64,000 nt of DNA from a virus. Shown in pieces: positions 21,830 through 64,000 of this stretch. The stretch's first letter is position 1. Each line of letters opens with the position of its first letter. Location of the stretch: the IMG/VR virus record IMGVR_UViG_3300035698_010610, positions 1 through 64,000 of that record, one strand, 5' to 3'. Both the position numbers and the translations under genes were made by a program. Under the pieces are notes generated by a model. The model made no database searches. It saw nothing but the letters and a program-made list of their open reading frames with translations, and was not told where the DNA came from.

Positions 21830-24800
21830 AATGCCAACAGCACCCCCAGGGCGAAGTTTGTGTAATCGCTGTCTTTCCAATACTTCGCAAACTTCCCGCC
21901 GCCGAAAAACGACTCCATTGCCATCGACATGATTTCGGTGCTTCCCGACGAGTAGGTCTTGCCGCAGTATTTGTCGGGGAACTTACCGTCCTTGTATTTC
22001 TCGCCGTCGTTCCACGGAAGGTCTTTCGTTGATTGCCCCTGCGTCCTCCGCTGAACGAATCTATTCTCTGCTGTCCGCAGCCGCATTCGCCCGCCGTTGG
22101 CTTTGAGGTTCCTTGCATGCCAGTGCGCCATTTCATGCGACGCTTCGTTGACGGCTCGCTTCGGCGTGGCTTTCCTGCCCAGGTAAATGTCGTTAGTAGA
22201 GTACGAAAAGTACGCACGGTCGTCCATCGCGGCTTCGATATAGTAGCTTTCACCCCCCTCCCATTCCTTGTGGTACCACTGTGTCGGATAGTCCTGCCTT
22301 GCCTTGTCTACTCCAGCCTTGATTCCCTTCGCCTTCCTTGACTTGGCACCACCGAAACTATCCCATGAAAACGCATACTCGTGCCCTGTGTCCTTCACGC
22401 CGAAGTCCCGACATTCAGCCATCACCTTCCGGAGCTTGTCTGCTTTCTCGGCAGGAGTGTTGCCGGTGTTTTCTATCGCCTTCCGTACCTGAGTAAGCTC
22501 CCTCCTGATTTCTTTCACTTGCGCCGCTTCGGAGGCAGACATCTCTTCAATCGGACGCCGCTTGCCAATAGCGAGCAAATCGTCGACTAGCGACTCTGCT
22601 TGCTGTTTGAGAACTTTTTCAGCAGCCTGACCCTCTCTGAATGCGGCGTCTAAGTGCTCCCGCACTATGTTGCCCACAGCCCTGATGTCATCTTCTGTTT
22701 CAATGCCCGCAGCAACTTTGCGGCGAACTTCCTGGCCAATTGCCTGCACGGGGTCGTTCATGTCGACCGTTTTGCGGCCCGTGAACAAATAGTCGTCCGG
22801 CACAACAACGTCCTGAATCGCGTCCGTTGCCCCGGCAGGTACACTTGCCACTTCAGCTTCGGCTCCACCTGTTGCCAATTGGCCAGCCGTTGGCAGCGGC
22901 AATTGCACAAGCTGCGGAGGCGGTGCCACGCTGTCCGGCCATCCGCCATACGCTCCCGGCTCGGATTGATCGAACTCGGTCGGGACGGACAATGTCGTGC
23001 AGCGGCAGTTTGACAAACACGCACCGTTCGCTATAATGAGGCCGGTTTCAGATTGGAGGTCATAAACCCAATGCGAAAACTCAAACTCCCGAATGTGCAA
23101 CACCTCATCAAGATGCACAAGGCCGGAAGAACTGTCCAGCAAATCGCTAACGACATCGGCTGCTCGGTCTCGCCAATCTATCGGGCTTTCTTGGCTGGAG
23201 GCTACCGCCCCCCTCGTCGTATATCCTTGAACGTCAATGCCCTTGCTGCTGACTACACAGGAGGCATGTCGCTCAAATCCCTGGCCAGCAAGCATGGCGT
23301 TGCCCGCAATGTAATTGCCCTTCGCCTCCAAGAAGCTGGCGTCGAACTCCGAGGCAGGAGCGATGCGGAGCGGCTGAAATGGGTGACACTCAAAACCAGT
23401 CGGGCTGCCGTTATCAGGCAATGCGGCCCCGCCTGGAAAGCCGCCGTTGCCGATGTGCCCGACATCCCGATTGATGCGTGCGTCGAATCTCACCCCGGCT
23501 ACAAACGGGCTGCGGCTGGCAAGTTCGCGAGGCAGTCTGGCATTTACCCGAACGAACAAGCCGTGGCCACGTTCCTGCGGCACAGCGGCACAGACATGCT
23601 GCACCAGTTCCCCGTTGGGCCGTACAATCTCGACTTGGCCCTTGATACCGAATTGATCGCCGTGGAAGTCTGCTGCCTCCCGGCCCACACGTTCAACAAC
23701 AAGCCCGCAGCCCGAACCCGCACGGAAATGCAACGCCTCGAATACATCTTGAATCGCGGCTGGTTCGTCGCGTACCTGATCGGCATAGCTCGCGTCGGCC
23801 GTTACAGGTTCGACCTGTCCGTGATGGGTGGCGACTTGCTCGCCTTGCTGAAGGTCGCCCGCGGCGATAAAACCACGCGAGGTAAGTACGGGGTGGTTTG
23901 GGGTTACGGTGAACCGCCTGCCGCTGCGAAGTATGACTTCAAGGGCCTGCCCTTCGTACCAGGCTTTGGTGCCTGCTACAAATGATCCTCGCACCTTGTT
24001 GCCCGGAAGAATGCAGTGGCATCGCTCCTTCCCTGGCAATGAATGGTGGCCGGGGAACGGTGCAGGAGAAGCACCAACCATGAACACGCCGGTCGGGAAA
24101 TCCTTCGGCACCCGTTTCCCGTGCAGGTCCGCGTGGGACTGGCGGGTATACTGGTCGAACGTCGCCGACCATTCCAGTTGCATCGCAGTCCCGTCGCTGA
24201 CCATCTCCTGATGTTGGACGTGGTGCCCGGAATTCCATGCGCCGCCGCTTTCCGTACGGCCGATGAGTTCCCCTCTGCGGCTGTTGCTATTGAGCCCTAA
24301 CACGCCGTCGGGGTTGCCGTCGCCGATCCGCACGCCCATCTGGTATAGATTCTCACCCTGCGACATTGAGGTGTTGATGGCGGTCGCCAAATTGTTGCGC
24401 GTCGTCATCGACATATCTTGCCAGTACGGCCGGGCCATGATCGTGTTGACCTCAGCCCTGACGGCGGCTTGCGTTTGCGGCGATAGCGTCACCATCAACT
24501 CGTCGATGGGCTTCGCGGCGCGGCGGGGACTCATGCCGAACACGCTGGCGAATATCGCACCATGAACCGCCAAGCCGAGCATGTGCGGGGTCGCAACCCG
24601 GAATAGCTCATCATTCCAGTATTGCGTATCGTAGACCACGTCCACAATGCCGCCGGACGCTGCCGCTCGCTTGAATGCCAGTGACGACGCGGACTTGTGG
24701 AACACGTTGCCGAGACGCACAAGGATTTCCGGACGCATGGCCTCGAACATCGCGGCAATGTCTACTGCCATGTCCCGCTCAAGGCTGTCGAGCTTGCGGA

Positions 24801-26382
24801 CCTGAGCGGTCGCGACACGCTTGGCAAACGTGTAGAATTTGTCCTTCCGCCAAAGCGGTGCGGCCACTGCCGCAGCGGGCTCGCCTTCCTCATCACCGCC
24901 TTCGGCGGCCCCGCCGGATTGTGATCGCCCTTGCCCGCTGCCGTCGTTAGCTCCACAACCCTGGCGAGGCGGTGGCGCGGACGCCGGATCGCGGATAGGC
25001 GTAAACACCTGATTCGCTGGCATCGGCAGATCGGCACCAGCACCTTTCGGCAGTTCTTCGAGTTGGCCGATGTTCACCCGTAGCTCGTCACGGTCCACGG
25101 CGCCGTACTTCGCCAGCAGAGCAAAGTCCTTCCGCCGCTCCTCGGGATCGTTCGGGCGGTATGCGTCCAGCCAGACGTACAGCCTCTCACCGGCCGGGGC
25201 GAAGATGGGGCGAAGCCACTTTGTCAGCACCTGACTCAGTAGTTCGATCTTCGGGTTGATCGTGAAGTCCGCGAAGTGCTCCCTGGCAACGGCAGACGCC
25301 GCACGGCTCATTTGCTCCACGCTGCCGATGATGGCCGGGTTCGTCCCGTGGCCTTGCGTGATGCGGTCCTTTGTGATCCTGCCGGAGCCGCCGAAGTCCA
25401 ATTCCGCCGGGCCGTGGCTGATCTGCTTCACGTCCTTGATAAGCGCGTCGAGAAGCAGCGGTTCCCCGTATTTGTGAACGCCGCCATAATACTGCCGGAC
25501 CGCCGCGTGGATCTGTTGGCGCTGTTCGCGCTCAAGCAGGGGCTTGCCCTCGTCTTCGCCGTCCTCGTCGGTGATGTCGCCGACAATGAGTGCTAACGTC
25601 GGATGGACGCCGTTCTTGAACGTGACCTCCTGAGCGGTCTGCATCGCCTCGTCAGCGAGGACGGCCCTGCGGTTTGCAGCCAGCGGACTGACGCTTCCGA
25701 GCGGATCGCCTGGGTCGGGGTAGGAGAAGTAAACCACCTCGTGGGCTGGACGGACGATCGGCTGCCCGGTCCCACGAGGTGTAATCGCCCACCCCGAAAA
25801 TGCTCCCTTCTTTTTGTCGTGGACCGGGGCCACCCAACTCTTCGGCAGCGGCCAGAGTCGGGCCTGACCATTCTCCCGTGTGATCCACCAGTAGGCTTCA
25901 CCGACCAACTCCAAGGACGCTACCGTGGAGTACCACACCGCCCACCCGGTCAATGCGGGGTTCGGGTCTTCCAGTAGATCGAGGATCGGGTGCTGTTCGT
26001 AAACCTGCAAATTCTCGGCGGCCGACTTGAGGTACCGCGGCGCGTTGCGGGCGGCGAACATCCTCCGCATCCGCTCCTTCGGGTCATCAATCGACAGAGA
26101 ACGGATGCCCGGTTCAACCGCAACACGCAGCGCCTGACCGGCGATGGCTTGACAGATCGGCCGAACGCTCGAATACACCCACCCACGAAACCATTGATAG
26201 TCCTGGCCTTGCGCGTTGCCGTCGGTGAGGATCGCCAGCGGGCTCGTATTCATCGCGTCCAAGGCAATGCCGCCGGATGCCAGACCGGCATCCCGTTGGG
26301 CGGGCGGCGAATAGCTCCGAGCATGGATGGCGATGCGATCCGCCGCGACCGATGCATTCCGATAGATCGTGTCGAGAGACAT
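21826..26382 (-). CDS. portal-MuF fusion with intein and C-terminal HEXXH (zincin-like) domain
   Basis: portal motifs (VYSSVRPI, HPILDLLEDPN, LVGEAYW, GSVSPL); MuF motifs (IGRTE, EWSATFDQYTRQSHADLHG, CH/CRC); HEMAH...EIMSMAME; 1518 aa from MSLDT after GGAG. Confidence 0.88.
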   Translation of the reverse strand: MSLDTIYRNASVAADRIAIHARSYSPPAQRDAGLASGGIALDAMNTSPLAILTDGNAQGQDYQWFRGWVYSSVRPICQAIAGQALRVAVEPGIRSLSIDDPKERMRRMFAARNAPRYLKSAAENLQVYEQHPILDLLEDPNPALTGWAVWYSTVASLELVGEAYWWITRENGQARLWPLPKSWVAPVHDKKKGAFSGWAITPRGTGQPIVRPAHEVVYFSYPDPGDPLGSVSPLAANRRAVLADEAMQTAQEVTFKNGVHPTLALIVGDITDEDGEDEGKPLLEREQRQQIHAAVRQYYGGVHKYGEPLLLDALIKDVKQISHGPAELDFGGSGRITKDRITQGHGTNPAIIGSVEQMSRAASAVAREHFADFTINPKIELLSQVLTKWLRPIFAPAGERLYVWLDAYRPNDPEERRKDFALLAKYGAVDRDELRVNIGQLEELPKGAGADLPMPANQVFTPIRDPASAPPPRQGCGANDGSGQGRSQSGGAAEGGDEEGEPAAAVAAPLWRKDKFYTFAKRVATAQVRKLDSLERDMAVDIAAMFEAMRPEILVRLGNVFHKSASSLAFKRAAASGGIVDVVYDTQYWNDELFRVATPHMLGLAVHGAIFASVFGMSPRRAAKPIDELMVTLSPQTQAAVRAEVNTIMARPYWQDMSMTTRNNLATAINTSMSQGENLYQMGVRIGDGNPDGVLGLNSNSRRGELIGRTESGGAWNSGHHVQHQEMVSDGTAMQLEWSATFDQYTRQSHADLHGKRVPKDFPTGVFMVGASPAPFPGHHSLPGKERCHCILPGNKVRGSFVAGTKAWYEGQALEVILRSGRRFTVTPNHPVLTSRGFIAAGDLQQGEQVATHHGQVEPVTADASYADQVRDEPAAIQDVFEALHFRAGSGCGLVVERVGREAADFHGDQFGIKGQVEIVRPNGELVQHVCAAVPQERGHGLFVRVNARLPRELASRSPFVAGVRFDARINRDVGHIGNGGFPGGAALPDNGSPTGFECHPFQPLRIAPASEFDASFLEAKGNYIAGNAMLAGQGFERHASCVVSSKGIDVQGYTTRGAVASSQESPIDWRDRAADVVSDLLDSSSGLVHLDEVLHIREFEFSHWVYDLQSETGLIIANGACLSNCRCTTLSVPTEFDQSEPGAYGGWPDSVAPPPQLVQLPLPTAGQLATGGAEAEVASVPAGATDAIQDVVVPDDYLFTGRKTVDMNDPVQAIGQEVRRKVAAGIETEDDIRAVGNIVREHLDAAFREGQAAEKVLKQQAESLVDDLLAIGKRRPIEEMSASEAAQVKEIRRELTQVRKAIENTGNTPAEKADKLRKVMAECRDFGVKDTGHEYAFSWDSFGGAKSRKAKGIKAGVDKARQDYPTQWYHKEWEGGESYYIEAAMDDRAYFSYSTNDIYLGRKATPKRAVNEASHEMAHWHARNLKANGGRMRLRTAENRFVQRRTQGQSTKDLPWNDGEKYKDGKFPDKYCGKTYSSGSTEIMSMAMESFFGGGKFAKYWKDSDYTNFALGVLLAL
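23010..23060 (+). promoter_or_regulatory. consensus sigma70 promoter and RBS for the antisense endonuclease
   Basis: TTGACA 23010-15, 16-bp spacer, TATAAT 23032-37, GGAGGT 23055-60, ATG 23071. Confidence 0.8.
23071..23985 (+). CDS. HTH + DUF559/Vsr-like endonuclease, antisense and nested in the intein
   Basis: two HTH-like segments (TVQQIANDIGCSVSPI; SLKSLASKHGVARNVI); NEQAV...HQFPVGPYNLDLAL...IAVEV...H...ILNRGWFV. Confidence 0.8.
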   Translation: MRKLKLPNVQHLIKMHKAGRTVQQIANDIGCSVSPIYRAFLAGGYRPPRRISLNVNALAADYTGGMSLKSLASKHGVARNVIALRLQEAGVELRGRSDAERLKWVTLKTSRAAVIRQCGPAWKAAVADVPDIPIDACVESHPGYKRAAAGKFARQSGIYPNEQAVATFLRHSGTDMLHQFPVGPYNLDLALDTELIAVEVCCLPAHTFNNKPAARTRTEMQRLEYILNRGWFVAYLIGIARVGRYRFDLSVMGGDLLALLKVARGDKTTRGKYGVVWGYGEPPAAAKYDFKGLPFVPGFGACYK

Positions 26383-26392
26383 GCGGCAACTC

Positions 26393-26659
26393 CTACTGTC
26401 TGCCGGTGCGGCGGGTACTCTCAGCAATGTCGGCTAGCCCGCGGTGCCTGATCCGCTCCAACTCCCCGGCGATCAATTCCGCTTCGTGGTTGGCGACACG
26501 GGCATCCGCCTCCAGCATTTTGATCCTGGCCCGAAGGTCCGTGATCTCGTCTTGCTGGACCGCCACAGCTCTCGCAAGGCGAACCTCCTCGGCCGATCTC
26601 CGCGCTGCGTTCATCCAACGGCAAATCGCCGCCGTCATCCTCAACTGTAGTTGCCACAT
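26393..26659 (-). CDS. small coiled-coil protein, first gene of the late operon (probably leaderless)
   Basis: EITDLRARIKMLEAD; ATG begins 7 nt after the -10 box. Confidence 0.55.
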   Translation of the reverse strand: MWQLQLRMTAAICRWMNAARRSAEEVRLARAVAVQQDEITDLRARIKMLEADARVANHEAELIAGELERIRHRGLADIAESTRRTGRQ

Positions 26660-26665
26660 GGGGGC

Positions 26666-26694
26666 GTTGTAGCATGCAGGCCCGGCCGATACAA
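26666..26694 (-). promoter_or_regulatory. promoter for the structural operon
   Basis: TTGTAT-N17-TACAAC with TG extension. Confidence 0.55.
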
Positions 26695-26736
26695 GATGAA
26701 GCATGGAGCGGGGGCGAATTGCTTCCATCCAACCCG

Positions 26737-26745
26737 TGGTATAAT
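26737..26745 (+). promoter_or_regulatory. extended -10 promoter for the plus-strand island
   Basis: TGGTATAAT. Confidence 0.55.
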
Positions 26746-26768
26746 TGCTTTCCAGATTGCGGCTCGAC

Positions 26769-26795
26769 CACATCGACTACCTGGTTGTCGATGTG
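26769..26795. repeat. 27-bp palindrome, copy 1
   Basis: CACATCGACTACC-T-GGTTGTCGATGTG; near-identical to 60224-60250. Confidence 0.8.
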
Positions 26796-26834
26796 CCCCC
26801 TTTTTTGTCGCAAACGCCTCCACGGACTGGACTT

Positions 26835-27368
26835 ATGCCGCCTCGCGATGTCAAGCGAATCTTCTACCGCGCACTGGTCACGGAGCCCGAGCCGGCGAAC
26901 GTCGACCTTGAATTGACCGTGCTGGGCAAGGTCGCAGCAGAACCGGCCGTCGCCGCGTGGGCGGTCCCGTTCTTGAGCGTCGGGGACTTCACAGATCGGG
27001 AATGCCGCCGCCGGTTTGCTGCCGTCAAACGGGAATGGAAGATGGAACCCACGAGAACCGCATCGGCCGACTCGTATGATGTTGTGATGCGGTTGCGGAG
27101 ACTGACGGCCGAACGGACGGCACGTCAACTCGCATGGCGGTTCGTTCGGTCAGCACACAACATGTCGCCCGAGAAGTTCGCCGACTACGTTATCGAACGG
27201 CTCGGGCAATTCCGCGAACGCCTTGGGGAATCGGGGCTGGGAGGATCGAATGGCCTACAGGTTGAACACGGGCAATCAGGCAAAGCTGCCGGAAGCACCA
27301 CCGAACGCAAGGGGACATCGGGCCCGCCACGAGCCGGGAAAGATGAACAGCCTGGAAAAGCGGTATAG
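26835..27368 (+). CDS. protein with a DnaB N-terminal-like domain
   Basis: PANVDLELTVLG...FLSVGDFTDRECRRRFAAV resembles DnaB_N; start uncertain. Confidence 0.5.
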   Translation: MPPRDVKRIFYRALVTEPEPANVDLELTVLGKVAAEPAVAAWAVPFLSVGDFTDRECRRRFAAVKREWKMEPTRTASADSYDVVMRLRRLTAERTARQLAWRFVRSAHNMSPEKFADYVIERLGQFRERLGESGLGGSNGLQVEHGQSGKAAGSTTERKGTSGPPRAGKDEQPGKAV

Positions 27369-27636
27369 CGAAGAACTTGACTTGCGGTTGCTGGCTGGCG
27401 AGGTGTTATGGTGGCGGTTTGAACCGCTCAAGCTACGGCTCGCGAATGGTACGTTCTACACCGCCGACTTCCTGGTCATGCTGGCGGACCGAACGCTTGA
27501 GGTTGTTGAGGTCAAGGGCGGCCACTGGGAAGATGATGCACGGGTCAAATTCAAAGTCGCCGCAGAACAGTTCCCGATCTTCCGCTTCCGCGCCGTGCAA
27601 TGGAAGGGGAAGGAACGCACAGAGGAAGTCCGATGA
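27250..27636 (+). CDS. PD-(D/E)XK nuclease (DUF1064-like)
   Basis: MNSLEKRY, YTADFLV, VVEVKG, ARVKFK; GGAGG RBS. Confidence 0.8.
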   Translation: MAYRLNTGNQAKLPEAPPNARGHRARHEPGKMNSLEKRYSEELDLRLLAGEVLWWRFEPLKLRLANGTFYTADFLVMLADRTLEVVEVKGGHWEDDARVKFKVAAEQFPIFRFRAVQWKGKERTEEVR

Positions 27637-27845
27637 GCTACACAGTCATTCCGGAGATGGCGTGTTTGCGGTGCAAAGGCCCCATCGTCGTGACTAAAAG
27701 CGGGCTCTGCTGCACGCAATGCGACGCCCCGATAGAACTGCTTAGCCGTCGCGAATTGCAACGGCTCAAGAGGACGCACCCGGGCCGCGTTATGCGATAC
27801 GGCGGTTGGCAACCACAACCCAAACCGGAGGAACCAGAATGCTGA
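27633..27845 (+). CDS. small zinc-ribbon protein
   Basis: CLRC...CTQC; ATGA overlap. Confidence 0.55.
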   Translation: MSYTVIPEMACLRCKGPIVVTKSGLCCTQCDAPIELLSRRELQRLKRTHPGRVMRYGGWQPQPKPEEPEC

Positions 27846-28153
27846 AAGACTCTATCGACACGTTGATCGCCCAACTGCAACGACTGCGGGCTGAATTGGG
27901 CGATGCATTGCAGGCGCCGCCAGTCGTTGAGATAGAATGCGGGGCGATGCAGCAGGACGCTCCGGCGGCCGTGCAAGTCTCCCGTGCAGTGGACTTCGCC
28001 TACGCCGTCAAGCACACGGGCAACCTGAATGTGCTTTTCAAGCAAGCCAAGGGTGCGTGCCGCGTTCTCGCGAGGGCGTATCAATCGGAAACGAAGACGA
28101 CGGTGATTTGCAGGCACGCCGATCGCGTGCTACTTCAACGCCAGGGGGGATGA
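27839..28153 (+). CDS. hypothetical protein
   Basis: GGAGG RBS before MLKDSID. Confidence 0.55.
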   Translation: MLKDSIDTLIAQLQRLRAELGDALQAPPVVEIECGAMQQDAPAAVQVSRAVDFAYAVKHTGNLNVLFKQAKGACRVLARAYQSETKTTVICRHADRVLLQRQGG

Positions 28154-28791
28154 TTGTGCTGACAAAACTCCGTGACCGCATCATGCGTGCGGGAATGCGA
28201 TGGCGACTATACCGCTGGATCACGCACCGCGTCGTTCCGAAGATCCGGCTTTCGTGGGGATACACCGGAATGAGCGAGGCCGCATTCTGGGACGGCGAAT
28301 GGCATTGGCAACCCGGCGACATTATCCTGACGAGCGACCGGGCCAAACTGTCGACCAAGCTGATCCCCGGCACGTTCCCACATGCGATGCTTGCGGTCGG
28401 GAAAAAGCTCCCAGAACTCGGCGTCGGGCACGGCGGCTTCATCGCACAGATGACGAGCAAAGGCTATTCGGAAATCGGCTGGTACGAGACCTGCAAGGAG
28501 TCGGACCGCGTGCTGATCTGCCGGTGCCGCGACTGGGATTACAGGTACGTCACACGGGTCGTGGTGCCGACGTGCCGCAGCTTCGCCAACAAACAGTACG
28601 ACCTGGCTTTCGAGTTGACCCGGCAATCGCTGTACTGTTCGGAGTTGATTTATCAAGCGGACCCGGAGCGGCGGCTGCAACTGAACATGACCGACGTCCT
28701 CGGGATGCCGATGGTCCTGGCTGACGATCTGCTGGCGGCCGAGAATGTCGATGTTGTTTGGGATTCGCAATGGGTAGACAAAACACCGTGA
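28150..28791 (+). CDS. permuted papain-like amidase (YiiX/YebB, NlpC/P60 superfamily)
   Basis: QPGDIIL, FPHAML (His), YDLAF...LYCSELIYQA (Cys). Confidence 0.8.
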   Translation: MIVLTKLRDRIMRAGMRWRLYRWITHRVVPKIRLSWGYTGMSEAAFWDGEWHWQPGDIILTSDRAKLSTKLIPGTFPHAMLAVGKKLPELGVGHGGFIAQMTSKGYSEIGWYETCKESDRVLICRCRDWDYRYVTRVVVPTCRSFANKQYDLAFELTRQSLYCSELIYQADPERRLQLNMTDVLGMPMVLADDLLAAENVDVVWDSQWVDKTP

Positions 28792-28883
28792 TGACCCGCG
28801 CCTTTACGTTGCTCGCCACCGTGCTGCTCATCGCGGTAATCTTGCTGGTGGCGTTTGCATGGAATGACGACGTGTGGTGGTAA
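28791..28883 (+). CDS. 30-aa single-TM peptide
   Basis: MTRAFTLLATVLLIAVILLVAFAWNDDVWW; TGATG coupling to the amidase; below the ORF-track size cut-off. Confidence 0.45.
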   Translation: MTRAFTLLATVLLIAVILLVAFAWNDDVWW

Positions 28884-28909
28884 TAACCCATACAGACAGG
28901 AAGGCCGCA

Positions 28910-29296
28910 ATGGCATACCACGGATTCAGTTCAGACGAGATTCACGGCAAGGTAATTGCAGACCTGCGAGAGTACCTCGAATGCAATGGTGTCAGTTGCG
29001 CCTGCCTCGACAGCGAGAAGACACGCCCACTGTGGGAAACGATCCGCATAGCCTGCGAGGCGGCAGCGTTTCAGACAAACTGCAAGCTGGCGGAATATTG
29101 GCGAACGTCGATCAAGGCGAACGCCGACCTCGGCATCTTGACGCTCTCGCAGGGCGACAAGATCAACAGCCTCCAGGGGGAAATCGAAACCCTGCGGCAG
29201 GCCAACGAGAAATTGACCTCCGATCTCGACAAAGCGGGCAAAGCCCGCGACGACGCCTACCGGCTGCTTGAACAGGGGAGATGCCGTGGCGACTGA
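28910..29296 (+). CDS. coiled-coil hypothetical protein
   Basis: GGAAGG RBS; heptad repeats at the C-terminus. Confidence 0.55.
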   Translation: MAYHGFSSDEIHGKVIADLREYLECNGVSCACLDSEKTRPLWETIRIACEAAAFQTNCKLAEYWRTSIKANADLGILTLSQGDKINSLQGEIETLRQANEKLTSDLDKAGKARDDAYRLLEQGRCRGD

Positions 29297-29513
29297 CCGG
29301 CGATGGGATTACTTGCGGACCTGCAATCGCTGCAATGCAACGTACGGGGCCTTGGAGCGGCGGTGCCCGAGTTGCAACGCCCAGGAATTCCGCCTGCCTG
29401 CTACAACTCCCATTCCGGACCGCGCGGTGACGGACGGGGCTTGTCGCCACCTTGCTCCCCGAAAATCCGTTTCACCAACGGTGACACTTCCTTCCCCTGA
29501 CCCTCCTGACTGA
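29286..29513 (+). CDS. small zinc-ribbon protein
   Basis: CNRC...CPSC; overlaps the terminase 3' end convergently. Confidence 0.45.
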   Translation: MATDRRWDYLRTCNRCNATYGALERRCPSCNAQEFRLPATTPIPDRAVTDGACRHLAPRKSVSPTVTLPSPDPPD

Positions 29514-56017: not shown

Positions 56018-56897
56018 GTGCCGCTATACATTTTGACCGTCCAAGCAAACGCCACGAATATGGCCGAGGCCATCACCGAAGCCTTCCACGTTGCCAAGGA
56101 GTATCCCGACGGTTGCGAAGTGCGAGCCGGCCACAAAGTCCACGCCACGGTCTACCCTAGCGGGGACGTGGCGTTCCCAGCAATAGCAAGGAAAACAAGT
56201 AGTCAGCAGCAACCGCCGCAAGAGGGGAGAAGAGGGAATGAGTAAGGCACTATCACCGGCAGTGGTCGCTGCCCTGCGGGAATTCGCGAGCAGTCAGCAG
56301 GGTGCGTTCCCCGGGGCTATCGGCAGGAGCGGCACAGTCCTGGTGCGAGCGGGCCTGGCACGGAGGCTTGGCCTCCGCACTTACGGAGGCACCTACCGGA
56401 ACGGCGAACGGCCAGACCGCTGGGTGGAATTCGAGTTGACACCCAGCGGTCAGAGGCTAACAGCGGCAACCGCCGCAGGAGGGAAGTGAGATGCCGTTCC
56501 GTGCGTATCCAGATCCGATCTGCATGGAATGCGCACAGGAGTGTGCTATTTGGGAGATCGTCGAAACGCTTCCCAGTGGTGGAGGATGCGAACTCTGGTG
56601 CTACTGCACAAAGTGCAATGTCGAGACCTTTCACCCAGCAATAGCAGCGGCAACCGCCGCAGAAAGCGAGGCGAGCCAATGAAAATCGACGCGACCAAAA
56701 TCGTTGTCGTGACCGTCGGATACGAGACCGTGAAGGAGTTCCGCCGGCAGTGGCCGGGATTCACGATCACGGCAATCGACGATCGCAAGGTGCTCGGATT
56801 CTGTGAGGGATGCGGCAGGGTGCTGTACGAGGTCTGCGGGTTGTGCTTTTGTAAGGAGCGGGATTCAGCAGCGGCGAAGGCCGCAGGAGGAGAGTGA
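56018..56897 (+). CDS. four small coupled hypothetical genes (56018-56245, 56238-56489, 56491-56682, 56679-56897)
   Basis: overlapping start/stop codons; two carry CxxC pairs; shared 3' repeat. Confidence 0.55.
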
Positions 56898-57115
56898 TGA
56901 ACATACGATTGACCGAGAAACTCGAAACCAAACTCGACGCCTACCGGGCGATGCGGCTGGAGGAAACCGGCAAGCGACCGATGCGTGAGTCTGCCGTACG
57001 TGAGCTGCTCGAAACGGCGTTGACTGACATTGAACCCACTCGCCCGGTAGCGGACAGACTGCGAGCTATCGAGGCGCGACTCGATAGGCTGGAAGGGGGG
57101 CACTACGATGAGTAG
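56894..57115 (+). CDS. ribbon-helix-helix-like DNA-binding protein
   Basis: MNIRLTEKLETKLDAY...ESAVRELLETAL. Confidence 0.6.
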   Translation: MMNIRLTEKLETKLDAYRAMRLEETGKRPMRESAVRELLETALTDIEPTRPVADRLRAIEARLDRLEGGHYDE

Positions 57116-57953
57116 CGATAAGCCAATCACCCCCGAGGAGATCACCGAGGGGCTGTTCACCGCCGAGGCGGTGCGGAGGGAGTTGCTGAATATTGAGTCG
57201 GGAATTCCCTACATGCCGGAGCCGTGTGACACGATCCGGGGGTGGCTCGTGAGCGTGAGTACCCTCCTACCCCGAGCCCTCCGCAACCTCCAGGCCGAGC
57301 GGCAGCGGGTGGCGGAACTGGAGGCCATCGTCGAGGGGATGAAAGCCGGTGTGGCCATACGCATCCTAGAGGCTGAGGTGGTGAAACTGGAGAAACGACA
57401 GAAGCAGTGGAACGATGGGGAGCTTGACGGAATCGTAGAAGACTACGACCGCCTGCGGCAGCGGGTGGCGGAGTTGGAGGGCAAAAACGACCAACTGAAA
57501 ATGCGGTGGGATCTATTCGCCGAAACTCACCTGGAGACTGAGGCGGAAAGCATCGCGTGGGGTACGCAACTCCGCATGGCCTCGGCGCTGTACCGGCTGA
57601 CATACTTGCAGAGCAGGATGGATCGCCGGATTTGCCGGTATCGGGGGCGTATAGTACGGGCAAAGGCGATTGTTCGCGAGTATGCGGAACGAGCGGAGCA
57701 GCTCCAGCAGCGGGTGGCGGACCTGGAGGCCGATGCCGCCGTTTTCAGGTTCATGCGTGCCGTGTCGTCGTCGGTTGGATCAGGGCTGGTGACCTTCCAT
57801 TTCGATCGCGATCGACTCGCCGTCCGATGGCGATTGAAAAACTGGGCGTGGGAGCGATGCGTACCGTTGAAGGAAATCGCGACCGCGCCGTGTCCTACGG
57901 GATTCGGGCAAGTGATCGGGGAGCGGATACGCCACGAAGTCGCAAGCCGCTGA
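57108..57953 (+). CDS. coiled-coil protein with three QRVA(E/D)LE repeats
   Basis: DNA repeat CAGCGGGTGGCGGA at about 57303, 57459 and 57708. Confidence 0.6.
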   Translation: MSSDKPITPEEITEGLFTAEAVRRELLNIESGIPYMPEPCDTIRGWLVSVSTLLPRALRNLQAERQRVAELEAIVEGMKAGVAIRILEAEVVKLEKRQKQWNDGELDGIVEDYDRLRQRVAELEGKNDQLKMRWDLFAETHLETEAESIAWGTQLRMASALYRLTYLQSRMDRRICRYRGRIVRAKAIVREYAERAEQLQQRVADLEADAAVFRFMRAVSSSVGSGLVTFHFDRDRLAVRWRLKNWAWERCVPLKEIATAPCPTGFGQVIGERIRHEVASR

Positions 57954-57970
57954 AGCGGCAGGAGAAACCG

Positions 57971-58231
57971 ATGAACACAAGTAGCATCAGACTCTCGCCA
58001 GTCGTTGCAGATTCGCGAATGATTATGCGCGACCGCGACGACGGCGCGGCTGAGTGGCTGACTCCAGATCGCGAATGGTCGCGGAGCATTTTCGAGGCCG
58101 CCCGGTTTGAACTGAACGAACTATGGAAGTCGCGGTACTGGCTATCGCGAGAGATCAGAGCCGTAGACGCGGCGGGAGGTGGGAATGAGCGGCAACCGAA
58201 ACCGACTATCATAGAGAACCCGCACGACTAA
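57971..58231 (+). CDS. hypothetical protein
   Basis: AGGAGA RBS. Confidence 0.5.
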   Translation: MNTSSIRLSPVVADSRMIMRDRDDGAAEWLTPDREWSRSIFEAARFELNELWKSRYWLSREIRAVDAAGGGNERQPKPTIIENPHD

Positions 58232-58255
58232 CCCTTCTGAATTGGAGAACCTGCT

Positions 58256-59074
58256 ATGCTTCAGACAATCATTTGCTCTCTGGCCGTGATGGCCGCCGCA
58301 CAGCATGGGGCGTCGCCGATCCCTTACGTGGGCGATGAAACGAGCCTCGTTCGGCTCAAGGCAACGACCGAGAAGTATGCCAGAAAACACTTCGTGATCT
58401 GCGGCGTGATAAAGTTGTCCGATGACTATGTCGGGAGTCGTGCAACTGAGCAACGCGCTTACGATGCAATTTCACTGCACGAGTACGGGAAGGACTTAGA
58501 CTCGCCTGGAAAATATCGCGCGATCCTGTACTGGCAGAAAGACATTGACAAGCCAGCAATGGCGGCTCTCGCGGATGCATTCGCAGCCGACACGAACGAC
58601 GACGGGCTCCTAGCCCGCGTATCGGCGACACTTGGCGGAGATTGGGCAATGGAGGGGCGGCAGTACACTGGAGCATATGAACCCTGGAACATCCTTCGCG
58701 TGACGGACGTGCAGTTGATCGACGCCAGCGGCAAGAAGTGGGGACCGTGGATCATGGAAAATAGGCTGAAAAAGCTCGGGCTCAAGTACCGCGTCGAGTG
58801 GACCCCTCGCGAGTACCTTGAGGCGGTTGCCGCAGCGAAAAGGAAACAACAAAACAAAGGTCTGGGACAACCAGCGCGGAAAGTGCGGCCAGTGGAGAAA
58901 AGGGAATTCCGCGAATGGGTGGATGTGACCGGCAAGCACCGCGTCAAAGCCAAACTGAAAAGCATGGCGTTCGGCGTTATCAAGTTGGAACTCGAAAGCG
59001 GCGAGGTCATTTCGCTGCCGCTGGACAGGCTGAGCGCAGCCGACCAGCAGTACATTCGGAATCGGTCGCGATGA
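58256..59074 (+). CDS. exported protein with C-terminal SHD1 domain
   Basis: signal-like N-terminus; REWVDVTGKHRVKAKL...IKLELESGEVISLPLDRLSAADQQYI. Confidence 0.8.
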   Translation: MLQTIICSLAVMAAAQHGASPIPYVGDETSLVRLKATTEKYARKHFVICGVIKLSDDYVGSRATEQRAYDAISLHEYGKDLDSPGKYRAILYWQKDIDKPAMAALADAFAADTNDDGLLARVSATLGGDWAMEGRQYTGAYEPWNILRVTDVQLIDASGKKWGPWIMENRLKKLGLKYRVEWTPREYLEAVAAAKRKQQNKGLGQPARKVRPVEKREFREWVDVTGKHRVKAKLKSMAFGVIKLELESGEVISLPLDRLSAADQQYIRNRSR

Positions 59075-59426
59075 CTCCCGGAACCTGCGGCCGATGCAGC
59101 ACCTAGCACCCCGCGAGTGTGGGTAGATGCCCGCGATGCGGGTGCCAGGAGTTCTGGATTCCAGCCGATCCCCCTGAAAACCGCCAGGAGCCCCGGGAAT
59201 CAGCCGCTGCCGTGAGCAAACGGCCCTCAATGGATGGGAACACCCAGACCGGGACAGGCCGTTAGGCGGCGAATCTGGGGGCTGGGGATTGCTGAGCCCT
59301 GGATTGGCGGTATATTGGGGGCTCAACAGAAAAAAAGCCGCACCGATGTTGAAGCATCGTGCGGCGTGGACTGAACGGAACACCACCGCTCATGCCGTCT
59401 GAATTCTACACAAAATCGACTCATCC

Positions 59427-59469
59427 AAAAGCCTTTTTCTGGCATTTCCAGCCGGAAGGGGCTTTTTTC
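59427..59469. terminator. bidirectional terminator-like hairpin
   Basis: AAAAGCCTTTTTCTGGC-ATTTCCA-GCCGGAAGGGGCTTTTTT. Confidence 0.6.
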
Positions 59470-59503
59470 ATGCGCTTGCACCGCCCGGATGGAGGGTATC
59501 GGC

Positions 59504-59806
59504 ATGCCGCGAGATGAGTGGAAGCGTGCCAATGACCGGACTGCCTACGGACCGGCGACCCCGAGGTCAACAAAACTGCGGAAGACCAAACGCAAGCGGC
59601 GGAAGGGGAAACGGAAACCGCGAACCGGACCCGGTGCGTGGTCTGGTTCGACCGTCCTTTGGTTCGGCAAACACAAGGGCACCCCTATCCGAGACGCGCC
59701 ACCGGATTACTTGCGATGGCTGGCGGAACAAGAAGCTAGCACCCCGAACGTCGCTGCGCTGGTTGCCTGGCTGCGATCGGGCTACAACTTAAACCGGGGG
59801 CATTGA
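59504..59806 (+). CDS. DUF3820/ExoX-C-like small protein
   Basis: LWFGKHKGTPIRDAPPDYLRWL. Confidence 0.7.
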   Translation: MPRDEWKRANDRTAYGPATPRSTKLRKTKRKRRKGKRKPRTGPGAWSGSTVLWFGKHKGTPIRDAPPDYLRWLAEQEASTPNVAALVAWLRSGYNLNRGH

Positions 59807-60223
59807 CCCCGACGTGATGCCCGCCGCGTGGCCCTGTGGGGCGCGGGTAGAATTGCCAGCGACTCGGGCCGCTTACGCCTCACCTTTGACAGAGGGAGGG
59901 TTCGCCCGAGAAGGTGATCGGTGGAATGATCGGAACCGGCGGGTACGTCCCGTCGCCATCGTTACCGTACCGGCAACAGGTGAGGACTCTGGCGTCGTGC
60001 GTCGGAGCGAGTGGCGGCCTGGCGCAGCAATTGGGCTGCGAGCAAAACGCGGAGCGCCGGGGGTTGTTGCGCACTGAGGCCAACCGTGGACGTTCATCGC
60101 GGCCGTGCTGCAAACCGCCGGAACCCCATCCAAGAAAAGCAAACGGGTGCGAGCCCAGCATTACCTGTTTTCAATGCCTCCAACTTGCACAGCGCAGCAT
60201 GCGTTGGTTATCACTGAATCTGG

Positions 60224-60250
60224 CACATCGACAACCTGGTTGTCGATGTG
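60224..60250. repeat. 27-bp perfect palindrome, copy 2
   Basis: CACATCGACAACC-T-GGTTGTCGATGTG. Confidence 0.8.
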
Positions 60251-60367
60251 GCTAACATGCGTGCTGACAAAGGTTTACGGTCATCGGGTTTGCCTCAAAA
60301 CCAAACCGGGTAAAATTTGCACTTTGGGAAATGGAAACCACGGGTGCTACACACCGGAGGCTAGCCG

Positions 60368-61300
60368 ATGACCGTATTGAAGATCACGCAAATCAAAGTC
60401 GATCAGAGCATTTTGGGACGGGCAACACTTGATGAAGGGTTGCTTGTTGAATACGAGGAATTGCGACGGACTGAGGAAGCCGTTTTCCCGCCCATCGTCG
60501 TATTCAAGGACACCGCCGAGAATTACTGGCTCGGCGACGGCAACCACCGCTTGCACGTTGAAAAGAAAATCGGCAACAACACGATAGACGTTGACCTCCG
60601 CGAAGGGTCGAAATCAGACGCCCGATGGTTTGCTGCGGGCGCAAACCTCAACCACGGGCAGCGGCCGTCACGGGGCGACCGGTTGCACGCTATCCAGAAT
60701 TTGCTGCTTGATCCTGCACACCAGAAGCGCCCGTTCGTTGCCATCGGCAAACAGTGCGGAGTATCCAAGCAGTATGTCGCCAAAGTTGCCAACGCACTCA
60801 TTAAGGCTGGCAAATTGAAGCCAGCAGCCGTCGGGAGAAAGACGGTTAAAATCACCACAGGCCAACATGCGGGAAAAACTTACGAGAAAGCATCGCCAGG
60901 GACCGGCGCGAAGGCCAAAAAAACAACAAGCCCGGCAACCGCAGCACCCAAGCCCAACGCAGCAAAGAAGAAGGACCAGCGGGGGCACGTTATTCCTGAA
61001 TACCTCCTTGGCGTCTGGGCTGGCCGGTCCGTGGTGATGGACATGGTGACGGAACTGTCTGCGATCCCGGCCAAGGTGCAAAAGCTGACGGTGCATGCAT
61101 CGGGTGCCGGGTCGATGATCGAGGTCGGGACGGTGAAGGACTTGCTCGGCGAAGCCCGCACCCGCATCAAGAAGTCTGCCCCGTATGTAATTTGCTCCGA
61201 CTGCCGCCCGAGCAATCATGTGTGCAAGGGCTGCAAGCAATGCGACGGGAAGGGATGGTTGTCCGAAGACGAATATTTTGAATGGAAGCAGGAACACTAA
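60368..61300 (+). CDS. ParB/Srx-like protein with HTH and C-terminal zinc finger
   Basis: FPPIVVF, YWLGDGNHR, ANLNHG, IGKQCGVSKQYV, CKQCDGKGW. Confidence 0.8.
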   Translation: MTVLKITQIKVDQSILGRATLDEGLLVEYEELRRTEEAVFPPIVVFKDTAENYWLGDGNHRLHVEKKIGNNTIDVDLREGSKSDARWFAAGANLNHGQRPSRGDRLHAIQNLLLDPAHQKRPFVAIGKQCGVSKQYVAKVANALIKAGKLKPAAVGRKTVKITTGQHAGKTYEKASPGTGAKAKKTTSPATAAPKPNAAKKKDQRGHVIPEYLLGVWAGRSVVMDMVTELSAIPAKVQKLTVHASGAGSMIEVGTVKDLLGEARTRIKKSAPYVICSDCRPSNHVCKGCKQCDGKGWLSEDEYFEWKQEH

Positions 61301-64000
61301 TGGCGACTCCGCAAGTTGAACTGCGGCCGTACCAGAGCGAAGCGGTCGTCAAATTATTCGAGGCGTTCCCGGACAACAACCGCATTCTTGTGTCCATGCC
61401 AACCGGTGTGGGCAAGACGGTTGTTGGGATGTACGCCGCGACGGTCTGGCCCGACGCTTGCGAGGCATTAGGGCTTCCGCCGAAAGTCTTGTGGTTGGCG
61501 CACCGCGAGGAGTTGGTTTTCCAGGCCGTCACCCAATTCCGCAACATGAGCGGCGAAGAGGCGGGCGTCGAAAAAGCGTACGACACGGTGACCAGCAGGC
61601 CGCTACTGGAACGCCCCCGCGTTGTTGCCGCGAGCATCCAGACGCTATTCTCCGAGGAGCGGCGGCTCCTGTTTGCCCCCGATGAATTCGGGTTGATCGT
61701 GATGGATGAATGCGTTGACGGCCTCGCGGCAGTAGAAACAGAACTTGGGACTATTCCACTCAGCGAAGCGGTGCGGCGTAAGGCCAAACGAGTGTTGACG
61801 CATGATGGAACATCTGCTAAGTTCGGTCGCATTGAGGCGTGGGCCAGTAAAGGCCGCCGGGCGGTGTTGCGGGTAGCGACATACGGTGGCACCATTCGCG
61901 TCACGGGGGAACATCCAATATGGACACTGCGGGGATGGGTGGAAGCCCGGCACCTAAAGCCCGGCGACGCCGTTGTGCGTGCGGTTGCGGCGTATGGATA
62001 CCGGCAGTCGACACCAGGGGGCGACCGCGAAAGTGCGCCCCTGGTCATTCGACACCCAGAAGTCGCGAAGAATGGTCGGTTGAGTACGAAAAATTTAAGG
62101 CGTCACTGCCGCTTTGTGAGTGTGGCTGCGGCACTAGCGTTACGCCAAACGCGAGTACGCTATCACGGTTTATTAAATGGCGTGGCACGCGAAGCATTCC
62201 AAGGTATCGCAAAGGCCACGATAAGCGGCCGTCCGGGTGGGAGATCACGCTTACGCCTAACGAGCGGTCGGCGATTCTCGGGACGCTACTCGGCGACTTT
62301 AGCATCGGCTTACCGAACCCACGCAGTAAGAACCCCAGGCTATCCGGGAACCATTCAAGCAAGCAGACGGAGTGGGTTCGCCACAAGGCCGCTATCCTCC
62401 GGCGGCTGTCGCCATCGGTTTCGTTTGCGGCCAATCCTGGGTACGGCGACCAGTTGTGTACGTTTCGGTCAAGTTGCCTCCCGTGTCTGTTGCCGATCTA
62501 TGATCTCACCCGACCGGACGGCGGCCCCAAAGTCATATCGCGGGCATGGCTTGACTCGCTGGGGCCACTGGGGCTCGCGTGGTGGATCTGCGATGACGGC
62601 AGTAGTTCCGCCGGATGGCAGATTGCACTTCACACTGAGGGCTTTGACGACACCAGTATCAGGGCTGTGGCAATGTGGTTTCGAGCTAAATACGGCGAGG
62701 TACGGGTCGCCCAGTCACGCCGAGGCAATAAAACGGTTCACCTTCGCAAAGCGGTCGCCAGCAAGGTCGCGGCTGCCATCCGGCCGCACGTGCCGCCCTG
62801 CATGGCATATAAGCTGCGATACTGTCCTGTCGGTTGACCCTGACGGATCGCGTGAAGTCTACGACCTTGCTGTTGCCGACACGCACTGCTTTTTCGCCAA
62901 TGGCATTCTCGTGCATAATTGTCACCACGGCGTTGCCCCGGCGTGGCAAGAAGTCGCCGACTATTTCGACAAGGGGAGGCTGGTCGGGTTGACGGCTACC
63001 ACGGATCGGGCCGACGAAGTGTCGCTCGGCCAGATGTTCGGTTCAGTGCCGTTCCATTACTCCCTGCCCGATGCGATCAAAGACGGCTACCTGTCGAAGA
63101 TCAAACAGGAGTACATCCGGGTCGAAAGCCTTGACTTTTCCGGCATCAAATTGGAAGACGGCGACCTGTCTGTGAAGGCGGTAGAGGATCGGATCAACCG
63201 CGAACAGACGATCCATGAACTCTGTGCCCCGGTCGCCAAATTGGCGGGGGACCGGCAAACGATCATATTCACACCATCGGTCGGCTCGGCTGAGTCGGTT
63301 GCGGCGCTGATGTCGGCACGGTATAGCAAACGCGGTGCGGTCGCTGTCAGCGGTTCGACGAATCCAGACGACCGGAAAGCAGCGGTGGAAGCGTACCTCC
63401 GGGGCGACATTCAGTTTCTCGTGAATTGTGGTGTATTTCTGGAGGGCTTTGACGCCCCGAATACATCCTGCATCGTCATCGCTCGGCCGACTGCATCGCG
63501 GGCGCTGTACGCTCAGATGATCGGTCGCGGGTTGCGCGGCGGCTGGGCGTGCCCTATTGAAGGAAAAGAGGACTGCCTTGTCCTCGACTTGACTGGCAAG
63601 GCTGCGGACCACCGGTTGGTCGGCTCACCCGATTTGCTCGCTGGGAATTACGACAAAGCCGTAACGGATGAGATCAGACGGCGGATGGAGGAGAAGGGGG
63701 AGGACGGCGAACCGAACGACGTGGATGAGATCATTGCGGAGTGCGTCGCTTCGTCCGACGAGCTACGGAAAATGGCGTTCGTGAAAGTTGTTGCTGACGC
63801 CAAGCTGTCCCGGAAGACCATCGACCCGTTTTCGTTGCTGGATGTCGCCGAGGAGGCGTTGCCGGGCTGGTGGGACGCGAAACAACCACTGCCAGAACAG
63901 ATCGACAAACTGGAGGCAGCGGGGATCAGACACGAGGGCGACTTCGACTACGCATCCGCCCAGAAGCTGTGCCACGAACTCGACGAACGGCGGGCAGCCG
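61300..64000 (+). CDS. SF2 DExH helicase (ResIII/YejH/Irc3-like) with intein, truncated at window end
   Basis: LRPYQ, MPTGVGKT, DE[intein]CHH, GLTAT, EGFDAP, YAQMIGRGLR; hand translation finds no stop through the intein; not in the ORF track, consistent with no stop in the window. Confidence 0.9.
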   Translation, partial: MATPQVELRPYQSEAVVKLFEAFPDNNRILVSMPTGVGKTVVGMYAATVWPDACEALGLPPKVLWLAHREELVFQAVTQFRNMSGEEAGVEKAYDTVTSRPLLERPRVVAASIQTLFSEERRLLFAPDEFGLIVMDECVDGLAAVETELGTIPLSEAVRRKAKRVLTHDGTSAKFGRIEAWASKGRRAVLRVATYGGTIRVTGEHPIWTLRGWVEARHLKPGDAVVRAVAAYGYRQSTPGGDRESAPLVIRHPEVAKNGRLSTKNLRRHCRFVSVAAALALRQTRVRYHGLLNGVAREAFQGIAKATISGRPGGRSRLRLTSGRRFSGRYSATLASAYRTHAVRTPGYPGTIQASRRSGFATRPLSSGGCRHRFRLRPILGTATSCVRFGQVASRVCCRSMISPDRTAAPKSYRGHGLTRWGHWGSRGGSAMTAVVPPDGRLHFTLRALTTPVSGLWQCGFELNTARYGSPSHAEAIKRFTFAKRSPARSRLPSGRTCRPAWHISCDTVLSVDPDGSREVYDLAVADTHCFFANGILVHNCHHGVAPAWQEVADYFDKGRLVGLTATTDRADEVSLGQMFGSVPFHYSLPDAIKDGYLSKIKQEYIRVESLDFSGIKLEDGDLSVKAVEDRINREQTIHELCAPVAKLAGDRQTIIFTPSVGSAESVAALMSARYSKRGAVAVSGSTNPDDRKAAVEAYLRGDIQFLVNCGVFLEGFDAPNTSCIVIARPTASRALYAQMIGRGLRGGWACPIEGKEDCLVLDLTGKAADHRLVGSPDLLAGNYDKAVTDEIRRRMEEKGEDGEPNDVDEIIAECVASSDELRKMAFVKVVADAKLSRKTIDPFSLLDVAEEALPGWWDAKQPLPEQIDKLEAAGIRHEGDFDYASAQKLCHELDERRAA
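61711..62919 (+). mobile_element. intein (403 aa) in helicase motif II, no in-frame endonuclease
   Basis: starts CVDG; block B VTGEHPIWT; block F VYDLAV; ends FFANGILVHN with +1 Cys; removal restores DECHH. Confidence 0.92.
61920..62837 (+). CDS. LAGLIDADG homing endonuclease in the -1 frame inside the intein
   Basis: ILGTLLGD, HSSKQTEW, GLAWWICDDGS, LHTEGF, MAYKL; two CxCGCG...GH modules; GGGGGA 9 nt before the ATG. Confidence 0.85.
   Translation: MDTAGMGGSPAPKARRRRCACGCGVWIPAVDTRGRPRKCAPGHSTPRSREEWSVEYEKFKASLPLCECGCGTSVTPNASTLSRFIKWRGTRSIPRYRKGHDKRPSGWEITLTPNERSAILGTLLGDFSIGLPNPRSKNPRLSGNHSSKQTEWVRHKAAILRRLSPSVSFAANPGYGDQLCTFRSSCLPCLLPIYDLTRPDGGPKVISRAWLDSLGPLGLAWWICDDGSSSAGWQIALHTEGFDDTSIRAVAMWFRAKYGEVRVAQSRRGNKTVHLRKAVASKVAAAIRPHVPPCMAYKLRYCPVG

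Follow-up and report, generated by a model that had tools for sequence, protein, structure and literature searches.

Two inteins with overlapping nuclease genes in a salt-lake phage genome

The first 64,000 nucleotides (nt) of IMG/VR virus record IMGVR_UViG_3300035698_010610 (hereafter the window), a complete virus genome of 90,314 bp with direct terminal repeats, contain two dual-coding inteins, each of which carries a nuclease as a separate, overlapping gene. The DNA of the window is found repeatedly in salt-lake metagenomes. Intein A interrupts the gene for a fused portal and MuF-like minor head protein, and intein B the gene for a superfamily-2 (SF2) helicase (Table 1). Both are very probably "non-canonical" inteins, in which the Hint lobes are read in the frame of the host gene with a stop-free filler between them, and the same DNA, read otherwise, encodes the nuclease. 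For each of the two we found an uninterrupted host frame and a complete nuclease open reading frame (ORF) nested in another frame or on the other strand. Since neither host frame in the window carries a stop, the inteins are contiguous and not split, and the loci are not fractured genes.

A sequence-only reading of this DNA, bounded by positions 23008 and 62919 (the outer ends of intein A and intein B), had described two inteins in different host genes, with nested nucleases of about 305 amino acids (aa) that differ in fold and in geometry. This description is borne out in every part. The nuclease of intein A (P0002) lies antisense to the head gene and is codon-aligned with it, and its core is predicted to be Vsr/DUF559-like; the nuclease of intein B (P0004) lies on the same strand as the helicase gene in the host+2 frame and belongs to the LAGLIDADG_2 family. 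The two nucleases are unrelated.

The two inteins and their nucleases

The head gene matches the Pfam families Phage_portal (PF04860; E 2.4e-37) and Phage_Mu_F (PF04233; E 2.5e-8). Intein A starts with a Cys, has a block B 'TPNHP' and a block F 'H.VYDL', and ends in Ser-Asn before Cys-Arg-Cys; in its relatives the insertion separates the Asn from the Cys in the MuF 'NCRC' motif. The nuclease gene is fully nested in the intein. No stop interrupts the plus-strand frame aligned with the host codons between 23014 and 23985; the two remaining frames of this strand have 15 and 16 stops in 22700-24400.

The N-terminal part of P0002 matches the helix-turn-helix (HTH) families HTH_58 and HTH_7 in tandem. 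A profile built from 12 homologues matches the DUF559 structure 3hrl (E 0.0074). In the AlphaFold model of P0002 (mean predicted local distance difference test score, pLDDT, 76.5), the core at residues ~159-303 resembles the catalytic domain of I-Bth0305I (3r3p; Z 10.9, 95 residues aligned), Vsr (1cw0; Z 10.6), and 3hrl (Z 10.2, root-mean-square deviation 1.8 over 89 residues), and the N-terminal part resembles resolvase/Hin-type HTH domains (Z 5-6.7). These Z scores come from a second structure comparison; Foldseek alone returned nothing at E<=0.001 for the model. Residues E168, D194, and E205 are invariant in 12 out of 12 relatives and align with conserved acidic positions of 3hrl, and in a comparison with the EDxHD motif we found no conserved His after the Glu in these relatives. 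On the modeled structure, P0002 is a tandem-HTH protein with a predicted nuclease domain that shares the catalytic-core fold of Vsr, DUF559, and I-Bth0305I.

The C-terminal ~390 aa of the portal-MuF fusion, downstream from the intein (21826-23007), have no Pfam match. This extension contains an H-E-x-x-H motif, as in zinc metalloproteases, at host aa 1431-1435 (22123-22137, minus strand). MuF proteins with toxin-like C-terminal domains are known.

The helicase gene matches ResIII (E 7.7e-24) and Helicase_C (E 3.4e-12). Intein B matches the Pfam family Intein_splicing (E 1e-10; 42.1 bits against a cut-off of 35.8) and has a Cys start, a block B of the form T..H, and a His-Asn end before Cys. 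The center of the intein in the host frame, ~290 aa, is filler rich in Arg, Ser, and Gly. The nuclease gene is fully nested on the same strand, in the phase given by (61920-61282) mod 3 = 2. The host+2 frame is free of stops between 61851 and 62837, with eight stops in the 170 nt before this stretch and three in the 20 nt after it, and the third frame has 19 stops inside the nuclease stretch. P0004 matches LAGLIDADG_2 (PF03161) with E 2.3e-21 (76.9 bits against a cut-off of 25) and has two motifs. D126, D225, and D226 are invariant in 14 out of 14 aligned relatives, as is a CxCGCG...GH module, of which the window P0004 has two, both N-terminal.

That the two inteins splice is suggested by their intact blocks and by the essential nature of the host genes. 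A megablast comparison of both host genes with GenBank phages gave no match, and the phage has no close relative there. Around the end of intein B and the first extein codons (62890-62929), salt-lake contigs share only 35-38 bases, with four to five mismatches, and then diverge; this points to other intein-bearing elements with the same junction in the same lakes.

Table 1. Coordinates of the host genes, inteins, nuclease genes, and candidate expression signals
Feature	Position	Strand	Basis
Host gene A, portal + MuF-like minor head fusion, 1533 aa	21826..26427	minus	ORF list; Pfam
Intein A, 336 aa, host aa 805-1140	24015..23008	minus	motifs
Predicted sigma-70 promoter, TTGACA-16-TATAAT	23010..23037	plus	consensus match 12/12
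GGAGG Shine-Dalgarno site, 11 nt before ATG 23071	23055..23059	plus	mirror of block F Asp-Leu codons
Antisense nuclease (P0002), 304 aa from ATG 23071 (310 aa from TTG 23053)	23071..23985	plus	ORF list, Pfam, fold
Host gene B, superfamily-2 helicase, 1036 aa	61282..64392 of the genome (past window end 64000)	plus	Pfam
Intein B, 403 aa, host aa 144-546, in motif II/DEAH box (MDE/C...HN/CHH)	61711..62919	plus	motifs, Pfam
G-rich ribosome-site-like run (block B Thr-Gly-Glu codons) and ATG (Ile-Trp codons)	61905-61911; 61920-61922	plus	
LAGLIDADG_2 gene (P0004), 305 aa, host+2 (= -1) frame	61920..62837	plus	ORF list, Pfam
Two LAGLIDADG motifs, P0004 residues ~119-127 and ~219-227	62274..62600	plus	alignment

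Recurrence, phase, and selection

A scan of IMG/VR with the single protein P0002 found no relative, whereas a profile scan did, yielding 114 confirmed relatives. We analyzed the best 80 of these, which comprise 67 distinct loci after removal of 13 protein-level duplicates. At all 80 loci the codon-aligned antisense frame is open over the whole match (ORFs of 254-1666 codons), and at none of the 80 is either other antisense frame open. Host-frame segments match Intein_splicing at E<=0.01 in 64 of the 67 distinct relatives and Phage_Mu_F in 50. In GenBank, tblastn with P0002 matched 53 phage records, from phages of Gordonia, Mycobacterium, Pseudomonas, Klebsiella, Aggregatibacter/Haemophilus, Edwardsiella, Cronobacter, E. 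coli, Vibrio, and Idiomarinaceae. Almost every match lies under a gene annotated as head morphogenesis or MuF-like. Seven of the 53 records were inspected, and in all seven the match is antisense to the head gene, codon-aligned, and unannotated.

For the helicase family the sample comprises 14 loci. In eight of these the helicase frame is contiguous and the nuclease is in host+2 (FoX3, L005, L006, L007, L097, L098, L099, and L101). Two more, in Pectobacterium phage Ymer and E. coli phage AN_ECEAS (L008/L009), have the same host+2 phase in a split host gene, so that 10 out of 14 loci share one phase. Both of these are fractured genes, and the Ymer locus is annotated as three overlapping coding sequences. 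A further three loci, the helicase inteins L103 and L104 and the GpA-type terminase intein L100, have the nuclease in the other shifted phase (host+1), and same-strand overprinting therefore occurs in both alternative phases. The remaining locus, L102, has no covering ORF. None of the 14 LAGLIDADG relatives is in frame with its host gene. The shifted nuclease is unannotated in FoX3 and AN_ECEAS. Each layout thus recurs widely, and the expectation of the sequence-only reading that single-frame annotation misses the nuclease is supported.

Three relatives stand out individually. In L100 a terminase large subunit (GpA_ATPase) at 2205-5717 carries the overprinted LAGLIDADG_2 gene. At L099:1979-4273, a UvsW-like helicase has a 255-aa intein with an intact host frame and a nuclease frame of 192 codons that matches residues 174-305 of P0004 only; this intein looks like a decaying copy. 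In the metagenome protein P0034 (359 aa), the helicase N-extein and the N-lobe of the Hint domain share one frame with the initial two-thirds of the LAGLIDADG protein, after which the register is lost; P0034 represents an indel variant or error, or else a half-fusion that is naturally in frame.

Among the records with the helicase family of homing-endonuclease genes (HEGs), none out of five also carries the Vsr-like family. The MuF element and the helicase element therefore look like independent modules, and their pairing in this genome looks incidental.

We compared the two readings of the same DNA by BLASTP. In the helicase family, the HEG frame scores 157-237 bits and the host frame 20-44 bits, in six out of six pairs. 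In the MuF family, the nuclease frame is ahead in 26 out of 28 pairs; of the other two, one has no match in either frame and one is near-equal. The similarity left in the host frame of this family is due in part to mirroring: Read on the reverse complement, the host-frame 'DFHGD' gives the invariant 'IAVEV' of nuclease A, and the nuclease 'YGV..G' mirrors the block B 'TPNHPV'.

The positions of substitutions give the same picture. We summed substitutions over five independent close pairs of the MuF family (two of seven pairs being dropped as duplicates) and found 54, 26, and 109 at nuclease codon positions 1, 2, and 3 of the nuclease core (109 vs. 54, P = 2e-5, binomial). Over the last 60 codons, which overlap the Hint N-lobe, the counts are 27, 9, and 27, and here both readings appear constrained. 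In the helicase family, L005 and L097 (75.5% nucleotide identity, 316 of 316 codons aligned) differ by 69, 45, and 118 substitutions at the three nuclease positions. In the host frame, the changes thus fall mostly at second codon positions, the reverse of what is expected for a selected host-frame protein. Selection tracks the nuclease frames in both families.

The host frames, for their part, have been kept open by selection or filtering. We synonymously recoded the nuclease gene 3000 times and counted the stop-free host frames. For intein B the host frame is open in 0.13% of recodings with genome codon usage and in 0.03% with a shuffle of the gene's own codons, and for its relatives FoX3, L005 (33% guanine plus cytosine, GC), and L007 in none of 3000. 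Among relatives of intein A, Aaphi23 has none open out of 3000, and three further phages (Klebsiella RCIP0054, Edwardsiella MSW-3, and Cronobacter ES2) have fractions of 0.0007-0.004; the own-codon shuffle is uninformative for intein A because the two frames are codon-aligned. Contigs from four other salt-lake runs, checked for the helicase intein, are identical to the window with no indels, jointly over 61621-63125 (61200-63400 being covered in pieces). Assembly error is excluded for intein B.

Predicted expression signals, proposed homing, and rival explanations

The signals predicted for nuclease A mirror conserved intein codons. The promoter mirrors the block G codons Ile-Ile-Ala-Asn-Gly-Ala-Cys-Leu-Ser-Asn, and it is the sole perfect sigma-70 site in the window (0 out of 100 shuffles) and in the 90,314-bp genome, on both strands. 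The ATG at 23071 mirrors the block F His codon CAT. The nuclease starts on this conserved His in eight out of eight loci first compared and in 51 of the 67 distinct IMG/VR loci, where the codon is CAT (giving ATG) in 41 and CAC (giving GTG) in 10; the set of 51 leaves out 12 loci without a recognized intein end and four without a His at the expected distance. Promoter-like sites with at least 10 of 12 consensus bases are present within 75 nt upstream of the start in seven of the 51 loci, compared with two of 1020 control windows, and sites with at least nine of 12 in 16 of the 51, compared with 1.2% of controls. In Klebsiella phage RCIP0054 and Edwardsiella phage MSW-3 (L012/L013), small annotated genes lie around the head gene on the nuclease strand, and there the antisense nuclease may join an adjacent transcription unit.

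For nuclease B, the G-run lies 9 nt upstream of the ATG at 61920, and a second ATG, at 61935, lies across the conserved Gly-Trp codons of the intein. FoX3 starts at another upstream ATG, and most relatives start at an ATG formed from the Cys-Thr codons before block B. The suggestion of the sequence-only reading that both nucleases borrow conserved intein-block codons as expression signals is therefore upheld for nuclease A, and holds only loosely for nuclease B, whose starts vary in place.

We propose that the nuclease would cut the host-gene allele of a co-infecting phage that lacks the intein, that repair would copy in the intein together with the nuclease gene, and that protein splicing would remove the intein, including the filler, so that the portal-MuF protein and the helicase stay functional. 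Nuclease A would have its own expression signals (a sigma-70 promoter, a Shine-Dalgarno site, and a start codon), all three being mirrored block G and block F codons. Nuclease B would most likely be made by internal initiation at the block B ATG on the helicase mRNA.

Several observations weigh against this reading. Intein A scores only 19.6 bits against Intein_splicing, under the cut-off of 35.8, and its penultimate residue is Ser, giving Ser-Asn where His-Asn would be expected. Its nuclease scores 22 bits against REase_MTES_1575, below the cut-off of 38.2, and a single-sequence phmmer search of P0002 against the PDB gave no match. The host frame of intein A stays open in 3.7% of recodings, which is only mildly improbable in a GC-rich genome: An aligned antisense frame needs only the codons TTA, CTA, and TCA to be avoided, which is cheap at 60% GC. 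The result is weaker still for two relatives, E. coli fEg-Eco06 (0.057 open) and the GC-rich Gordonia Angelicage (0.27), and the test is uninformative for the likewise GC-rich Pseudomonas BR313c, because the reference codons include no TTA, CTA, or TCA. The genetic code itself makes ATG or GTG the mirror of a His codon, so only the block F position and the CAT bias of the start codon are informative. For intein B, the nuclease start site is not conserved, occupying three N-lobe positions among relatives. The AlphaFold prediction of the host-frame intein, made from a three-row alignment, has a mean pLDDT of 34 (N-lobe 52-65, the rest <50) and is uninformative on the filler. A search for RNA runs containing the helicase-intein stretch listed none.

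One rival explanation takes the nested frames to be open by chance, or to result from frameshifts in the assembly, in DNA rich in GC. At 60% GC, long alternative ORFs are common (42 kb hold 66 ORFs of at least 150 aa), and the recoding result for intein A belongs on the same side. Neither the Pfam and fold matches of the two nucleases nor the same layout in the AT-rich relative L005, open in none of its 3000 recodings, would be expected by chance, and the independent runs are free of indels; we practically discount this explanation. It is also very improbable that the inteins are decaying canonical inteins, whose once in-frame nuclease domains were left as dead remnants by compensating indels or inversion. 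The shifted ORF of intein B does nearly fill the interval between blocks B and F, the usual seat of in-frame nuclease domains, L099 has its shortened 192-aa HEG frame within an intact host frame, and P0034 joins N-extein and N-lobe in frame to the first part of the HEG. However, both nuclease ORFs are intact, residues of catalytic type are invariant in the relatives, and substitutions are concentrated at nuclease third positions; the phase is fixed among relatives of only 21%-49% identity, with none of the 14 LAGLIDADG relatives in frame.

The remaining alternatives accept the nucleases as real and concern how they are made or what they do. Nuclease B might be produced by programmed -1 frameshifting from the helicase frame, and not by internal initiation, as a fusion of N-extein, Hint N-lobe, and LAGLIDADG protein. 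Relative to the host, the HEG frame is -1, and it is open from 61851, upstream of the ATG, with a G-run at 61905-61909; P0034 shows such a fusion reading in at least one metagenome contig. By eye, we saw no canonical X XXY YYZ heptamer in intein B, no formal search having been run. A Met-His start lies at the same spot in nine of the 14 aligned relatives, as an initiation site predicts, and the split-gene relatives Ymer and AN_ECEAS must initiate independently; we regard frameshifting as unlikely. Free-standing phage nucleases with roles in competition or in attack on host DNA are known, and the nested nucleases could serve phage-phage competition or host-DNA attack instead of homing of their own inteins. 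The zero out of five co-occurrence, and hence the independence of the two modules, would fit such roles. But the Vsr-like clade was found only in the MuF intein, across the best 80 of 114 IMG/VR loci and the seven inspected of 53 GenBank records, and the LAGLIDADG clade lies in inteins or split inteins in 13 out of 14 loci. Such obligate linkage of nuclease and intein is what homing predicts, and from it we infer a homing function. For some non-canonical inteins there is, in addition, phylogenetic evidence of continued invasion in the text of Gosselin et al. (bioRxiv 10.1101/2025.01.02.630785). A role other than homing is thus quite unlikely.

On balance, we consider it highly likely that the window holds two non-canonical inteins with overlapping homing-endonuclease genes. 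The sequence-only reading had offered the layout either as an intermediate towards in-frame fusion or as an alternative to it. An intermediate fits poorly: the phase fixed at 21%-49% identity, together with the lack of any in-frame member among the 14 loci, favors a stable alternative, and the nested layout looks like such an alternative rather than a transitional state. Its origin may lie in the invasion of inteins by free-standing nuclease genes. We also put forward a more specific history, to which we give slightly less than even credence. The MuF intein and its antisense Vsr-like nuclease would be an old, obligate dual-coding unit, the clade existing only in nested, codon-aligned form, with blocks F and G co-opted as signals. 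Expression of nuclease A could then start at a promoter of its own, probably an early one, and be uncoupled from that of the late head gene around it. In parallel, the helicase family shows that one overprinted LAGLIDADG gene can reside in a contiguous or a split intein without change of phase, and intein fission would be a side branch and not the source.

Known systems and implications

The sequence-only reading had presented the two inteins as a candidate class of dual-coding inteins. This class is not new: it has been described by Gosselin et al. in 2025 and by Phillips et al. in 2026, and is known from these preprints as "non-canonical inteins". Gosselin, Arsenault, and Gogarten (bioRxiv 10.1101/2025.01.02.630785) report 63 such inteins in actinophages, with antisense VSR-like, antisense LAGLIDADG, and out-of-frame EndoVII-like nucleases. 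In their data the inteins of minor capsid genes are exclusively non-canonical, and the origin they propose is invasion by a free-standing nuclease gene. Intein A resembles their cases in its antisense nuclease, its MuF host gene, and the VSR-like fold, which they link to 3R3P (I-Bth0305I), as we find for the model of P0002. Our tblastn search also places the P0002 family antisense in MuF genes of Gordonia phages, a data set of the type they studied. The two sets differ in that theirs come from actinophages, whereas ours come from a salt-lake phage with relatives in phages of Pseudomonas, Klebsiella, Aggregatibacter, Edwardsiella, Cronobacter, E. coli, and Vibrio, and in that their out-of-frame nuclease is EndoVII-like and ours is LAGLIDADG. 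They name an Angelicage-like cluster beside their discussion of EndoVII-like nucleases, whereas our tblastn search puts a Vsr-like ORF antisense in Angelicage gp15. A term search of their main text returned neither 'promoter' nor 'start codon'; relative to that text, the mirrored block F/G signals, the universal codon-aligned phase, and the recoding tests are therefore additions.

The closest counterpart of intein B is the cyanobacterial dnaX intein of Phillips, DeSimone, and Gogarten (bioRxiv 10.64898/2026.09.14.751524), with a LAGLIDADG nuclease in the +2 frame. According to both preprints, which cite it, Gorbalenya 1998 was the first to propose this arrangement. As presented there, the dnaX case shares with intein B a two-motif LAGLIDADG in the +2 frame of the same strand in a contiguous intein, a Shine-Dalgarno site upstream of the start, and purifying selection on the nuclease frame with relaxation on the host frame. 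It differs in its host, a bacterial dnaX gene as against the DEAH box of a phage SF2 helicase. The helicase family here also has split-intein members in the same phase, as well as helicase and terminase inteins in the other shifted phase.

Fractured genes with split inteins and a free-standing endonuclease gene between the halves were described by Dassa et al. 2009 (PMC2677866). In common with the present case, the hosts there are phage genes of DNA metabolism; Vsr-like nucleases were first described in that work as putative homing enzymes, nuclease and intein-half coding regions overlap over short stretches, and a model ties free-standing nucleases to inteins. The window inteins differ in being contiguous, whereas Ymer and AN_ECEAS are fractured with the same HEG phase. 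The ShiLan insertion in a phage methylase (Arsenault et al. 2025; PMC11855218) hides an HNH endonuclease in another frame, and there, too, the overprinted endonuclease occupies an insert that is open in the host frame. That insert is described as having no splicing domain and no detectable ribosome binding site, whereas the window inserts have Hint blocks and Shine-Dalgarno-like sites. The predicted core of P0002 shares its fold with I-Bth0305I, Vsr, and DUF559; I-Bth0305I is intron-encoded, and P0002 has a different, tandem-HTH N-terminal part. In the literature surveyed we found no mirrored promoter, ribosome site, or start codon, no strict codon-aligned phase across a MuF family, and no phage helicase family of +2 LAGLIDADG genes with contiguous and split members. 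The mirrored signals and the strict phase are modest additions to a known class.

Standard annotation pipelines overlook such nested nucleases, and the inteins that carry them pass as 'mini' inteins, either degenerate or free of an endonuclease. The estimated number of still-mobile inteins is distorted accordingly. The two loci are also a clean natural case of long overlapping genes, in which about 900 bases are read twice and the selected reading can be demonstrated directly, and in intein A the signals of one gene are written in the mirror of the conserved codons of the other. The two families may be a source of new LAGLIDADG and Vsr-like enzymes whose target sites, the MuF 'NCRC' site and the helicase DEAH box, are long and predictable. 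The data favor the published view that splicing domains and nucleases associate repeatedly and can long remain separate genes.

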